Source: a virus (Duplodnaviria; Heunggongvirae; Uroviricota; Caudoviricetes). Taken from it: DNA of 64,000 nucleotides. The notes under the pieces were generated by a model that made no database searches, was not told where the DNA came from, and worked only from the letters and a program-made list of their open reading frames with translations. Location: IMG/VR virus record IMGVR_UViG_3300028591_000102, positions 88,579 to 152,578 of that record; one strand, written 5' to 3'. Position numbers and translations under genes: made by a program. This document shows positions 7,882-50,486 of this stretch, one piece after another. Numbering within the stretch: position 1 is the first letter of the stretch; each line of letters opens with the position of its first letter.

Positions 7882-7912
7882 AAAAAGACCCGGCTAAAAA
7901 GCCGGGTCTTTT
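7882..7912. terminator. Bidirectional rho-independent terminator between the convergent + and - gene blocks
   Basis: aaaaaaGACCCGGCtaaaaaGCCGGGTCttttatt. An 8-bp GC-rich stem with an A-run on one side and a T-run on the other. Confidence 0.7.
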
Positions 7913-8282
7913 ATTCTTCTATGAATGGTTCAAGTGCAAGCATTTCAGTTGGAGTAAAATCGTTTTCACCTAAATCCTCTAATAAAATTTTATTCGCATC
8001 TATATCAACCGTTGTATCAAGAACTTTACCAATCTCATCTACAAATTTAGACATGTTGTCTCCAGAAAAAATAAATTCATTATTTTCTGGATTAACTTGT
8101 GGGTCTCCGTTTTCATCTTTATTAACATACTATTGAATTAAATTTTGTCTTGCGCCAGCAAATAAATTAATTTCATTTTCTACTTGCTGTAATATTTTTC
8201 CTATATTATATGCAACACGTCCTTTTAATGGTTTCTATGACAGTTTTTTTAAAACTTCTATATTCCCAATTAAATCTTTCAT
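7911..8282 (-). CDS. Hypothetical protein, 123 aa, 2 in-frame TAG
   Basis: Manual minus-strand translation gives MKDLIGNIEVLKKLS(TAG)KPLKGRV...NLIQ(TAG)YVNKDENGD...EPFIEE, ending at TAA. The start abuts the resolvase stop. Confidence 0.45.
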
Positions 8283-8293
8283 TTTAACTTGAA

Positions 8294-9046
8294 TCATATA
8301 TCTTCACCCCATTTAATTTTGTTACTGCGTAATTTTCCGCAGAAAAATTTTCCTATACAAATCGCGTCCGCTTCATCTTCGGTACATTCCATATCATACC
8401 AAATCTTGGCTTTTGCCTACGCCGCTTTCTTCTTTGACTCACGATGCGTATCTCCATCATTAATGCCACAATAAGAGCGCCATTCACTTGGATATACTAA
8501 CTCATGATCTATACAAGCTTCAAATATTATATCTAAAAGTACACCTTGTAGATTAGCCAATGTTTGAAATGTTTTTACTTGTACATCCGTGGCTTTCGTA
8601 CCATATTTCTACAATTGAATATTTTCAATTCCAATAAAATCTGGTTGCCATTCATTTATCGCAGCTCTAAGCCAGTTTTTAACTTGATTAATGCGCTCAG
8701 TAGCCTATAAACTTGAATTAGTTTTAAAAGTACCGAAACTTACTAATACTTTATCATCATATATAGCATATCCAGTAACGCTTGTTGCCGCGTCTAATGC
8801 TAATATACGTTGCGTATCTGTGCCCTTGGTGGGCACCTTATTTTTTTTGACTTTATATGGGTCGCCTGCCATACAGATATCACATATCTTATGCTTGCGC
8901 CACTAATCAAATGTCTATTCTTGTTTGTGCCCAGCAGGACAAGTCATTTCTAATGGAGTTTTTAAATTTTTATAAACTTCACTAATTAACTTCCATCCTT
9001 CTGCTTCCAGAGCATTTCTTACAACGTAGACATTAATTGTTCCCAT
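8294..9046 (-). CDS. RuvC-like Holliday-junction resolvase with an N-terminal Cys/His zinc-ribbon, 250 aa, 5 in-frame TAG
   Basis: Manual translation shows RuvC-fold motifs LALDAATSVTGYAIYD, FIGIENIQL and EDEADAICIG. The N-terminus has CPAGH...CDIC. Its ATG overlaps the dut stop as TAATG. It ends at TGA. Confidence 0.7.
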
Positions 9047-47176: not shown

Positions 47177-47205
47177 ATTATACATTAATTTAAGTAAAAA
47201 GTCAA
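47177..47205 (-). promoter_or_regulatory. Promoter TTGACT-17-TATAAT
   Basis: Minus strand reads TTGACTttttacttaaattaatgTATAAT. Confidence 0.5.
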
Positions 47206-47642
47206 TTATTTGTAGGCGGCGTTTCGGGTAAATTCATAATATATTCAAAATAAATTTTACCCTGTCCATTACCGTTTAAGCCATCGTGATAAATCTCATA
47301 TATATCGTTGACTTCTTTTTTTTCGGCCGCAGAGGCCCAGCCACGATCGTCTACCAAGATTTTCTTCCAATGATATAATGTATCAAAAAGTTCCATTTTT
47401 GTACCTTCTCCAATTATTGCAAGACGCCCATCAATATGAGCAACATGGTCTTGTAGTTTATCTACCTTGGATTCTACTTCTGACATTTTGCCGCTAAGAT
47501 TATCGACAGCGATCGCGACTTCGTGTAACTTTTCCTGATTTTCTTCGGCTCGGTCTAGAAATTTATCCATACGCATTAGGCGTTTTTGTTCTTCATCATA
47601 CTTGTTCTTGAAATGTTTGAGAAAGTCTCCGAACTTGGACAT
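47202..47642 (-). CDS. Coiled-coil protein (~146 aa)
   Basis: RBS aaaggagg then ATG (MSKFGDFLKHF...). Heptad-rich. Confidence 0.45.
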   Translation of the reverse strand: MSKFGDFLKHFKNKYDEEQKRLMRMDKFLDRAEENQEKLHEVAIAVDNLSGKMSEVESKVDKLQDHVAHIDGRLAIIGEGTKMELFDTLYHWKKILVDDRGWASAAEKKEVNDIYEIYHDGLNGNGQGKIYFEYIMNLPETPPTNN

Positions 47643-47666
47643 TGGTATCACCTCCTTTGGAAGAAA

Positions 47667-50486
47667 TTATTTAGGTAATTCTATATTTCCTATTTCTTTA
47701 TTAATAGCATTAACAATATCGAGTAATTGTGCTAGAAACAATATTTGAATTTGTATCTCATTTGCTGCGCTTGCACCGGTAGCAGCCCAGGTTCCTTTTC
47801 CATTACCCGTAATATTTTTCTATGATACTGTATTAATAATTGTTACTCCAGCGCCACGATGCATTGTAGTTGGAATATTATTAATTTGTGGTAGAATTTC
47901 TTGTTCTAGAGTATTAATTGTTCGTAGAATTACTTGTGAACCTGGTACAAGTAATGAATTTACATGATATAGATGTAAAACATGAGCGCTGCTTTTATTT
48001 TGTATATTACTAAAATATTCGCTATAAAGATTTGAAATTAATTTGGTTTCGTCGCCACCCTCATCAAATAATGCAAATGCCGCCACAGCGCCGAGATAAT
48101 TTTCAAGCAAGCCTTTATTACTTTCTCCAACTACAGAAGACGGGAAGCAATTTAAAATGGCAGAACGTATCCATTTTAAATCATCTATTGGTAATCCCGC
48201 GGTCTAAAAAATATCTGCAATAGTATTTAACTAAGCATCAAAGTTGCTTCCAAGTGAGCCGCCGGCGAATCCCATTTGATTATTATAAGTATTATAAGAT
48301 TTAACAGTAGCAGAAATTCTAAATGCCGCTTGAAGACTTGTTAATAGCGATTCTTGTTTAATAATATCATATGATTTTCCTAGTTTTCCTTTTCCACCCA
48401 ATTTTTCATCTAAAAGAGTGTGTGTAACCTTTTCTAAATTAATGTAAGCTTCATCAATTGCTTTATACTCTTTTCTTAATTCTTCAAGATTGTCAATAGA
48501 GAATTTTGATGCAAAAGAATATCTAAAAGAAGATGAATTGCTATGTACAATTTTATTAATTTCATCATCAGCAATTCTTTGAATTTGTTCCATTAAATCA
48601 AACTAGGCCTGTTGTATAAGTTCATTTCCTTTTGCTATTGCATTTGCTAGCTTAGGTTTATTTAATTCTATAAATTTTTTTTCTAAATTTTTTAAAGAAT
48701 TGGACGAATCTATTCCAATTGTGACAAAATCATTTTTATTATTTTTTCCAGCATTATAAATTGTTCTAGTATTATCATTTTTCATGCTGAAATCGATAGT
48801 AGCAAGTAATTCTTCTAATTTAGGGCCGTTTATATAAATTTTTATATTGCGTAATTCTCCCTCAACCTCATTTACTAATTGTGATTCCGATAAACCAAAT
48901 AAATTTTGATTATGTGCATTTGTCAGTGCGGTAATAATATTCTATTTTAATTGTTTAGATGCCTAAGTTGTTGTGCTTCTAATAAGATTTGTTATAGAAG
49001 TTGCATTAGAATTTTTTACCACATCCTAATTAACTACAAATTCATTTAATTCAGACATATCTATAGATGCCTTGCCATCTTTAATTATTACTTTTACCGT
49101 TATCAAATCTCCATTTTTAGTCATTAATTCATATTCTTTTTCTTGCGCCTATCTTAATTTAGTTAATGTTTTAATATCTTCTTCTATTTGTTTTTGTAGA
49201 TTTTTAATTTGTTCTATAGTAGATATTATATTTAATGATTCTTCATATAAATTGTTATCACTATTTGATGGTGATAAAGACATGGCTTGAATTAAAAGTG
49301 AATTAGATTTACCCTAGGATTTTGCTACTATTTCTTCACGTTGAATTAATTGATTAATACGTATATATAATTCAGTTGCACTTTTTGCGTCCTCAATACG
49401 GGAGACATCCTCATATATTCTTGCTTCATGAGCATTCTAGCCGAAGTTTTTTGGTAATCCAGATACTTTAAAATTCATTATCATATCAATTATTGAATTA
49501 TCTTTACTTGTTAATTCATTAACAATATCATCTATCTATATTGGTTTAATTCGTTTGTTTAAAATTGAAAATAAATGTTTTTTTCCATATTGTGTTACTG
49601 CCCAAGCTATGGCAGTTCGTATGGGTTCAATTAATTTATTAAAATTACCATCTGTAGGATAGTTAGGAGCAATAATTTCTACTAATTTTGCAATTAGAAC
49701 GCTATTATCTTTAAGTGAACGTATAGTATTTTCTGCCCAAGAGGCTAATTCACGATATGCCGTCTAAGATATGTTTTTAAATCTATATGCTCCACGAATT
49801 ACATATTTTCCATTTTTATGTTTATTAGTTAATTGAGAGGTTTTTGCATATTCAACCTATATTTTCCTAGTGAAACGATTATATGCTTTTTTAATTCGTT
49901 CCTGCGGATTCTTCCATTCCTAAGAAAAAGCCAACCCCTCTAATTGATCCCATTTTTTACTAAGCATATCATCTAAAGCTTGATCAAGCTTTTCTATACG
50001 TTTGCTTTCATGTTCAGATATCATTTTTGCTTCATATAGACCTTTTTGTAATATATTAATTAGAGTAGTAAATTTATCATAATCAAAAGATCGAGTACCA
50101 TCATTTAATATTTTGATACATTCTTGTAATTGAGGAATATGTTTAATTTCCTCTTCAGAAAAGGAACTAATTAATTTATTATACTAAGTGGAAAAGAAAA
50201 CTTCTTCGTTTTGCTGTTCATATTGGTATGCCTATTTAAGAAAGCTAATAATTTGTTCAAAGCGTGATCTAAAAGCTTCTATACTTTCATCTTCATTTAA
50301 ACTATTTAAATGCATATTCTACTAGGCATCAGATGCTGCTTCAGAAGCTTTTCGTGAAACAAATTCCATATCATATATATCTCTTTTTTCATTCCAAGTA
50401 TCAACCTTTAAGAGGGAATTAAAATAAACATAATCGACATGCCAGCCATCATAAAATTCTAGTCTTGTTTTATTCGATCCCATACT
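47667..50486 (-). CDS. Large protein of 939 aa with ~18 in-frame TAG codons, including a tandem TAG-TAG at 50319-50324. Merges track ORFs 50322-50573, 48603-48785, 48231-48593 and 47820-48110. Function unknown; possibly virion-associated
   Basis: All four track fragments are in the same frame (gaps divisible by 3). The ATG at 50484-50486 follows aaagggggaatagt. The gene ends at TAA 47667-47669 just before the RBS of the next gene. No Walker motif. Confidence 0.55.

Follow-up and report, generated by a model that had tools for sequence, protein, structure and literature searches.

Gene-by-gene partition of in-frame TAG codons in a rumen-type phage, a candidate translational switch

Partition of TAG among genes and its conservation

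We examined the use of TAG as a sense codon in a 64,000-nucleotide (nt) stretch of a Caudoviricetes phage genome (positions 88,579 to 152,578 of IMG/VR record IMGVR_UViG_3300028591_000102), referred to here as the window. An original prediction, made from the sequence, held that TAG recoding is gene-specific and that recoded genes are interleaved with standard-code replication genes on the minus strand, and this partition was borne out. The TAG-containing class comprises 12 genes with 85 in-frame TAG among 5,289 codons (16.1 per 1000 codons), TAG accounting for 38% of glutamine codons, whereas the TAG-free class comprises 58 genes with 2 TAG among 14,252 codons (0.1 per 1000), both located at most 10 codons from the C-terminus. 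TAG is distributed heterogeneously across the genes of the window (chi-square 279, 69 degrees of freedom, p = 5e-27), and the natural logarithm of the probability of finding zero TAG in the 455 glutamine codons of the TAG-free genes is -220. As argued below, the partition probably reflects a translational switch, in which TAG-containing genes would await a phage suppressor tRNA and TAG-free genes would not.

Class counts were taken after trimming of open reading frames (ORFs) whose single TAG precedes the likely start; four ORFs (39678-41018, 59495-61027, 61513-62187 and 39162-39503) have an apparent lone TAG of this kind and were counted as TAG-free. Internal TAG codons are absent from 50.5-64 kb and are richest in the three plus-strand ORFs at 1-7872. 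One of the two TAG codons in the TAG-free class is found at codon 528 of 531 in the DnaB ORF (23880-23882, minus strand), where it may be the true stop or may be read as sense, with TAA following three codons later. DnaB orthologs carry TAG at the same spot or one codon further on, followed by 3-20 variable acidic codons, and the L016 ortholog ends at that spot with TAA (L numbers designate loci from related phages, introduced below). Because the tail of DnaB is variable and the L016 protein stops at that position, the stop and glutamine readings would both give a working protein. The second TAG (57589-57591) lies 10 codons before the stop of a DUF5662 protein. The prediction that replication and metabolism genes lack TAG thus held internally for every gene it had named, the terminal DnaB codon being the one departure.

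The stop codons of the window are consistent with this reassignment, consisting of 49 TAA, 21 TGA and at most 2 TAG. With TAA and TGA as the sole stops, stop-to-stop ORFs of at least 100 amino acids cover 95% of the window, compared to 80% under code 11. The G+C content is 34%. Three long plus-strand ORFs occupy positions 1-7872 and are followed by approximately 67 minus-strand genes running from 63.8 kb to 7.9 kb; the two gene sets converge on a bidirectional intrinsic terminator at 7883-7912, whose 13-bp stem contains 7 GC pairs and which has a T-run on each strand. Family searches (Pfam, PHROG and NCBIfam) confirmed the domain identities in the original gene list.

The plus-strand ORFs consist of a partial ORF (1-345; 2 TAG), a 606-amino-acid ORF (348-2168; 8 TAG) and a 1893-amino-acid ORF (2191-7872; 29 TAG), and TAG makes up 47-50% of their glutamine codons. 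They have no Pfam or PHROG match, so we can only presume, from size and position, that they are virion or tail genes. The other TAG-containing genes are all on the minus strand. The most TAG-dense of these (10403-11437; 13 TAG, 48% of glutamine codons, with 5 of the 13 in codons 21-39) encodes a protein, taken to be membrane-anchored, with a hydrophobic helix at its N-terminus, a coiled coil, and at its C-terminus a GIY-YIG domain of homing-endonuclease type, matching Pfam GIY-YIG, TIGR01453 (63 bits, above cut-off) and a PHROG homing endonuclease family. Next to it is a gene for a 132-amino-acid protein (10018-10416) with a single TAG at its first glutamine codon, and its orthologs also mostly have one. 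The RuvC-like Holliday junction resolvase (8294-9046; 5 TAG) falls just under the Pfam RuvC cut-off and scores 34 bits against the NCBIfam RuvC model, under the 163-bit cut-off, but matches PHROG 827 and 159 at E = 1e-22. At its start the gene shares 1 nt with the stop of the dUTPase-domain gene, and its own stop is overlapped by the start of the last gene of the operon, which encodes a 128-amino-acid protein of phrog_1401 (no assigned function) and contains 2 TAG (7911-8297).

Further along the minus strand, the PIN-PhoH gene (42536-43801; 4 TAG) has TAG at codon 27 within PIN and at codon 232 within PhoH; it ends its operon, and a terminator lies beyond it at 42482-42505. The ClpP-fold protease gene (43782-44387) has one TAG, at codon 21 and inside the Pfam CLP_protease match (19-197). 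It begins 23 nt past the end of the TAG-free ligase gene and has PhoH as its other neighbor, outside any head module, and its product matches PHROG head-maturation-protease families that include 94, 2976 and 133 (lowest E 5e-22). A 68-amino-acid ORF (46118-46324; 1 TAG) stands amid the TAG-free ligase, deoxynucleoside monophosphate (dNMP) kinase and RNase H genes. A Cys- and Trp-rich 193-amino-acid protein (40987-41568) has one TAG at its first glutamine codon, with 1-3 TAG in orthologs, and its gene has as neighbors, in one predicted operon, the deoxyribosyltransferase and xanthine/uracil permease genes, both TAG-free. The largest minus-strand TAG-containing gene (47667-50486; 18 TAG) encodes a fast-evolving 939-amino-acid protein; the region upstream of the gene contains a terminator-like hairpin (50510-50532) and gave no consensus promoter. 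This protein has no match in Pfam, PHROG, NCBIfam or PDB, the IMG/VR scan found nothing, and only 3 homologs were found among 5.8 billion proteins. A 938-amino-acid TAG-containing protein is entered in a protein collection as one full-length product, indicating that its gene call read through TAG. All the TAG counts given in the original prediction (5, 13, 4, 1 and 18 in the five larger minus-strand proteins, and those of four small ORFs) were reproduced.

We collected 105 related loci from IMG/VR scans with DnaE, a methyltransferase-like protein, ligase and a small ORF of the tRNA array. Many come from contigs of 130-193 kb with recurring sample numbers, and Rfam cow-rumen RNA families are present among them. 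The window represents approximately one third of a phage genome from this family of rumen-type IMG/VR contigs, the largest of which are 165-193 kb. In ortholog alignments, glutamine is enriched 6.1-fold in the columns that hold TAG, and the commonest alternative codon is CAA. TAG occurs in 27 of 44 well-conserved glutamine columns, compared to 0 of 54 for serine, 0 of 155 for leucine and 0 of 97 for tyrosine. These alignments indicate that TAG encodes glutamine in the recoded genes.

The same partition is kept in about 25 related IMG/VR contigs of 130-190 kb. Orthologs of the RuvC-like gene contain 4-11 TAG in 14 of 16 relatives, those of the TAG-dense GIY-YIG gene 7-16 in 17 of 19, those of PhoH 2-8 in 5 of 6, and those of ClpP 1-4 in 4 of 6, the last at conserved glutamine columns; the 939-amino-acid protein has one clear recoded ortholog, in L044, with 23 TAG. 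Orthologs of DnaE, nrdD, primase, GyrA, ligase, dNMP kinase, RNase H and the permease contain essentially none. The comparison of DnaE with the RuvC-like protein is informative with regard to selection. CAA and CAG are both seen in all 40 conserved glutamine columns of DnaE, indicating that synonymous change there is saturated, and TAG occupies 1 of the 940 codons; TAG occupies 68 of 144 conserved glutamine codons in the RuvC-like orthologs. The change from CAG to TAG is a single transition that is synonymous given the suppressor, so its absence from the replication genes points to selection against TAG in these genes. These data indicate that selection maintains the partition across the phage family.

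The suppressor tRNA of related phages

No tRNA gene, release factor gene or aminoacyl-tRNA synthetase gene was seen within the window, and the window itself gave no Rfam match. In relatives, an array of up to 34 tRNAs, accompanied in some by a transfer-messenger RNA, lies upstream of the orthologs of the window's right-hand genes. A CUA tRNA with a canonical CUCUAAA anticodon loop was identified by ARAGORN in 21 of 56 tRNA-array loci, and a pattern scan added two contigs. Such a tRNA is present on the contigs of L014, L015, L017, L023 and L026, all of which are recoded around DnaE. The predicted phage suppressor tRNA was therefore found to be encoded by relatives, but not in the window itself. 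The L051 suppressor and the ortholog of 62741-63514 are approximately 14.6 kb apart, the suppressor being upstream, and from this spacing the suppressor of the window genome would be expected approximately 14 kb past the right edge. When the window and the first 43 loci were searched for canonical CUA anticodon arms, every match fell inside coding sequence. The 'Pyl(cta)' call at L043:7528-7610 was set aside as evidence, since its loop is odd and position 33 is A.

The structure of the suppressor is supported by covariation in all of its arms, including the variable arm (examples are L051:5046-5131, L097:3455-3539, L053:10748-10836 and L081:14157-14251). In most suppressors the acceptor end combines a weak A1-U72 or U1-A72 pair with G73, as in the tRNA-Gln(UUG) of the relatives, whereas position 1 is G in the array tRNAs for Ser, Leu, Tyr and Glu and in most of those for Lys. 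The tRNA-Gln identity features tested (weak 1-72 pair, G73 and U35) are thus all present. The main suppressors are 85-96 nt in length with a variable arm of 17-23 nt, and are therefore not type I short-loop tRNAs; a 74-nt type I CUA tRNA was found only in L093 and L094. A UGA is conserved in the loop of the long variable arm. In one subgroup the D-loop is 4 nt and the score against the Rfam tRNA-Sec model is 34 bits, which is below the gathering score but better than the score against the general tRNA model. A limited literature search found no description of Gln-type type II suppressors.

A near-consensus promoter of host type is found ahead of the suppressor in most loci, either 36-62 nt upstream or approximately 480 nt upstream, before a small TAG-free ORF. 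The orphan Rfam motif cow-rumen-4 RNA lies approximately 400 nt upstream of the suppressor in 5 of 7 loci checked and approximately 1.1 kb upstream in a sixth, L056 (L051:4599-4664, L097:2995-3062, L073:4224-4289, L090:4006-4068, L100:4126-4186 and L056:2858-2920). In L097 the order is near-consensus promoter, this RNA, a small TAG-free ORF encoding a coiled coil, and the suppressor. The cow-rumen-4 RNA could be a 5' leader that controls the suppressor unit.

Other RNAs were also found in the tRNA arrays. These include cow-rumen-3 RNA (L097:3544-3688, directly 3' of the suppressor; L051:7799-7942; L100:10831-10968) and a large ROOL RNA (L051:16440-17019 and L064:5892-6475). The arrays also contain odd tRNA-like genes (L032:1306-1382, L037:3242-3316, L034:24-98 and L034:5089-5160), among them a conserved tRNA whose anticodon loop spans 8 nt (four-base 'aaga'), a 75-nt type I AAG tRNA with a covarying anticodon stem, and a third, poorly paired tRNA-like gene between tRNA-Pro and tRNA-Ser.

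Promoters, operons and explanations of the partition

We identified seven perfect TTGACA-17-TATAAT predicted promoters of host type in intergenic gaps of the minus strand, most with an upstream TG. One of these, a predicted sigma-70/sigma-A promoter at 11467-11495 (minus strand; TTGACA, 17 nt, TG, TATAAT; 12/12 match), stands directly upstream of the TAG-dense GIY-YIG gene. A promoter with an 11-12/12 match is found upstream of this gene in 19 of 19 relatives, and in 16 of them it lies 56-65 nt before the start. The TAG-free DnaE gene is likewise preceded by a perfect 12/12 predicted promoter, and the minus-strand consensus promoters within the TAG-free block end at 20060, 36028, 36427, 38451 and 39415. 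Near-identical copies of a promoter plus leader (TTGACA ... TGATATAATAAAAGAAAAAGAGGTATTT) occur at 36028-36056 and 36427-36455, before two adjacent small genes. The promoter and ribosome-binding signals are of ordinary Firmicutes type.

The ClpP, PhoH, RuvC-like and small TAG-containing genes have no promoter of their own and lie at -20 to +23 nt from TAG-free upstream genes, in predicted mixed operons closed by terminator-like hairpins. One predicted operon runs from RNase H through dNMP kinase and ligase, all TAG-free, to the TAG-containing ClpP and PhoH genes; another comprises the GIY-YIG gene and a small ORF (both with TAG), a small ORF and the dUTPase-domain gene (both without), and the RuvC-like gene and a last small ORF (both with). 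Because the predicted operons mix both classes, discrimination between them is most simply placed at translation. The position of TAG within genes is consistent with this. The first TAG occupies the first or second glutamine site in 11 of 11 complete TAG-containing genes (permutation p = 5.5e-4; p = 0.03 when only the 8 securely started genes are used), and relatives exhibit the same 5' bias inside homology-defined regions. No such bias was seen in the controls, which compared CAG to CAA in TAG-free genes and AAG to AAA in TAG-containing genes.

These data are probably best explained by a translational switch. Genes needed first, for replication, nucleotide metabolism and auxiliary functions, have no internal TAG and would be readable by the standard machinery of the host. 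In the absence of the suppressor, translation of a TAG-containing gene would halt within the first 6-55 codons. As the phage CUA tRNA with its tRNA-Gln-type acceptor is made from the large array and accumulates, the TAG-containing genes would become translatable; with shared operons and consensus promoters, the two classes would be told apart at translation, not at transcription. We infer three steps of this scheme, namely the suppressor of the window genome, a host with the standard code, and the delayed (late) expression of the TAG-containing genes. A purely translational timer in operons of early type, in which consensus promoters and the TAG gate at the first glutamine are combined with a long-armed suppressor, and in which the cow-rumen-4 RNA could set the switch time, is a more specific version that we regard as rather unlikely.

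The original prediction had described the recoded set as late or lysis-associated and gated by a suppressor. The shared promoters and operons and the 5' position of TAG fit a translational gate, but no lysis gene or cassette was found in the window, which also lacks a terminase gene. Holliday junction resolvase is classically required before packaging. The prediction had also proposed that recoded non-structural enzymes sharpen the model, a point that we find weak: the ClpP-like protein matches head-maturation families, and scattered recoded modules have already been published (Borges, bioRxiv 10.1101/2021.08.26.457843).

Several observations weigh against the switch. No tRNA gene is found in the 2.1 kb past the right edge of the window on a near-identical contig from the European Nucleotide Archive (ENA; L050), and no CUA tRNA in the parts fetched of several recoded relatives (such as L057 and L067). 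The L050 contig (ERZ27256846, k141_401403; 31,313 nt) equals window positions 52741-64000 bar 2 mismatches in 11,260 nt. The two gene classes differ by more than TAG, G+C at third codon positions (GC3) being 0.18 in TAG-containing and 0.26 in TAG-free genes. The partition leaks among relatives, with 0-6 TAG in the ortholog of 14982-16073, 0-3 in AAA_24 and 0-3 in RecJ. We know of no late role for PhoH or the 939-amino-acid protein. Consensus promoters need not be early-only, and a suppressor transcribed from the start of infection may make the delay short.

An alternative function for the same codons is that of a safety lock, by which TAG would block harmful products (nuclease, protease, PIN-PhoH and virion proteins) when the phage tRNAs are absent or inactivated, as in a silent or lysogenic state, during leaky transcription, or on use of the genes by a co-infecting element. 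The TAG-containing genes of the minus strand do include potentially harmful enzymes, the most TAG-dense of them has a constitutive-looking promoter, and a similar role as a lysogeny switch was proposed for prophages by Borges et al. (bioRxiv 10.1101/2021.08.26.457843). However, apart from two small helix-turn-helix proteins there is no sign of an integrase, repressor module or prophage context in the window or related loci, and no relative turned up when 185,579 reference genomes of bacteria and archaea were scanned with DnaE, a scan that gave no hint of the host. The lock overlaps heavily with the timer and sequence alone does not separate the two; we consider it unlikely.

The partition might instead reflect history rather than regulation, TAG having drifted into fast-evolving or long-resident genes while the TAG-free genes are slow or were recently acquired from standard-code sources. 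The higher GC3 of the TAG-free genes is in line with this, as is the gain and loss of TAG by some fast-evolving genes among relatives, and two TAG-free genes (27254-28156 and 59495-61012) use CAG almost exclusively for glutamine, which suggests a foreign origin and hints at mixed origins within the TAG-free class. However, 26 TAG-free genes with low GC3 (5,832 codons) also have zero internal TAG, and DnaE has undergone saturated turnover between CAA and CAG, yet is almost devoid of TAG. Rate of evolution does not account for the classes either: TAG is abundant in the RuvC-like gene, which is fairly conserved (59-90% identity), and almost absent from the fast-evolving dUTPase-domain gene (34-69%). 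Nor does drift predict the 5' bias of TAG. A purely historical origin is therefore improbable. We also considered whether TAG had replaced CAG, which makes up 12% of CAA+CAG in TAG-containing genes and 38% in TAG-free genes; AAG trends alike and the low-GC3 TAG-free genes have 18% CAG, indicating that the difference is mostly one of general GC3 composition.

A third possibility is that TAG, read inefficiently in competition with release factor 1, tunes dosage, the number of TAG codons setting the yield of distal genes and not its timing. TAG-containing genes are often found at the distal ends of operons. However, the largest presumed virion proteins are the richest (29 TAG in 1893 codons, 18 in 939), and their synthesis would be abolished unless suppression were near-complete. 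There is no clear signal in the base after TAG in the window (p = 0.5), with a weak one in the non-independent family data (p = 0.008), and lone TAG codons fall at the first glutamine site, as an on/off gate would lead one to expect. Dosage tuning is accordingly very improbable. That the host natively reads TAG as glutamine and the phage mirrors its code can be discounted almost entirely, since no supporting point was found, 58 genes are evidently under selection to avoid TAG, a CUA tRNA is encoded by the relatives themselves, two relatives (L027 and L048) look standard-code, the promoter and ribosome-binding signals are ordinary, and no bacterium with TAG as glutamine is known to us.

Other genes of the window and comparison with known systems

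The TAG-free genes include the dUTPase-domain gene (9046-9825), which shares an operon with recoded neighbors on both sides, and a block at 11492-39690 that encodes a formate/nitrite-type transporter, replication and nucleotide proteins and small ORFs, all on the minus strand. In this block are nrdG (12045-12539), nrdD (12539-14788), DnaE (16070-20032), RecJ (20757-22532), primase (22747-23865), DnaB (23868-25463, with its single TAG near the C-terminus), AAA_24 (26215-27207), GyrA-like (29100-31175) and GyrB-like (31950-33821) genes. The GyrB-like gene is flanked by TAG-free HNH homing-endonuclease-like genes (31178-31942 and 33898-34746), the first of which has 3 TAG in its ortholog from one relative. 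A free-standing GIY-YIG endonuclease gene (36452-37018) is TAG-free, unlike the TAG-dense GIY-YIG gene, and an almost pure A+T tract of 259 nt is found at 37019-37277. The nucleoside deoxyribosyltransferase gene and both transporter genes (xanthine/uracil permease and formate/nitrite-type) have no internal TAG. The TAG-free ligase, dNMP kinase and RNase H genes (44411-47151) belong to an operon headed by a promoter with an 11/12 match (47177-47205).

The auxiliary genes at 50558-63759 (minus strand) also have no internal TAG. They encode metallophosphatases, an ADP-ribosylglycohydrolase, an SPFH protein, a pyrimidine-dimer glycosylase, an RNA ligase, the DUF5662 protein, a DUF2828/DUF7788 protein, an AAA_33 kinase and the methyltransferase-like protein. 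Near the side of the window facing the tRNA array are the RNA ligase, a metallophosphatase and the AAA_33/zeta-toxin-like kinase (53906-55147, 61513-62118 and 62120-62596). Together, these three resemble an RNA/tRNA repair set, which would fit a phage that relies on its own tRNAs.

Partially TAG-recoded gut phages and the translational-switch model have been described before (Ivanova 2014; Yutin 2021, PMC7886860; Borges 2021; Mgcod 2022), and the reading of TAG as glutamine was shown by proteomics (Peters et al. 2022, PMC9523058). The model itself is thus published and not new, and the phage analyzed here adds to the known partially recoded phages; what it contributes is a well-populated family of large rumen phages, represented by dozens of IMG/VR contigs of 130-190 kb. 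Borges (bioRxiv 10.1101/2021.08.26.457843) reported suppressor tRNAs, recoded late genes and standard-compatible replication genes, with variable recoding of the latter, as well as scattered recoded modules in large phages and strong recoding of homing endonuclease and transmembrane proteins. Like these code-15 gut phages, the window uses in-frame TAG as glutamine, has standard-compatible replication genes, recoded presumed virion genes and few TAG stops, and belongs to a family with a phage suppressor tRNA (here in relatives) and a proposed translational switch. Unlike them, it has single-gene interleaving inside operons of one strand, and no lysis cassette was found in it. Promoter sharing, the first-glutamine bias and the long-variable-arm suppressor are absent from the text of Borges 2021; no wider search was made and we do not claim that they are unreported. 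The family provides clean sequence-level tests of the switch idea, in that the same consensus promoter precedes both a polymerase gene without TAG and a nuclease gene dense in TAG, operons are mixed, TAG occupies first or second glutamine sites, and TAG is almost totally excluded from replication genes despite saturated change.

Mgcod (bioRxiv 10.1101/2022.06.29.495998) describes a dual-coded early block beside a late block that is code-15-only, with a strand switch as the boundary, and uses 5-kb windows with a minimum block of three windows. A code boundary at a strand switch is also seen here, at approximately 7.9 kb. Unlike in the Mgcod picture, nine TAG-containing genes lie inside the dual-coded minus-strand block without a strand switch, several of them in shared predicted operons, and Mgcod would probably merge these isolated genes into the dual-coded block. 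With regard to annotation, block-based code callers are likely to mis-call isolated TAG-containing genes.

The window phage can be likened, by descriptions only, to the Jade, Sapphire and Agate clades, which are large Firmicutes-associated recoded clades (Borges, bioRxiv 10.1101/2021.08.26.457843), in that genome size is comparable (approximately 150-210 kb), the source is an animal gut or cattle, and recoding is partial, with recoded modules spread over the genome. Megablast of 25 kb of the window gave no match to deposited GenBank phages. The closest annotated DnaE-type polymerase is YorL of the Bacillus phage SPbeta group (37% identity over 99% of the protein), but no similarity was found at the nucleotide level and SPbeta uses the standard code; the window phage is not a member of that group. 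Like the classical amber suppressor tRNA-Gln of the supE type, the suppressor of the relatives has a CUA anticodon, a weak 1-72 pair and G73; unlike that type, the main suppressors are 85-96 nt in length and carry the long covarying variable arm. This Gln-type suppressor and the orphan RNAs adjacent to it provide leads on how such a switch would be made and controlled.

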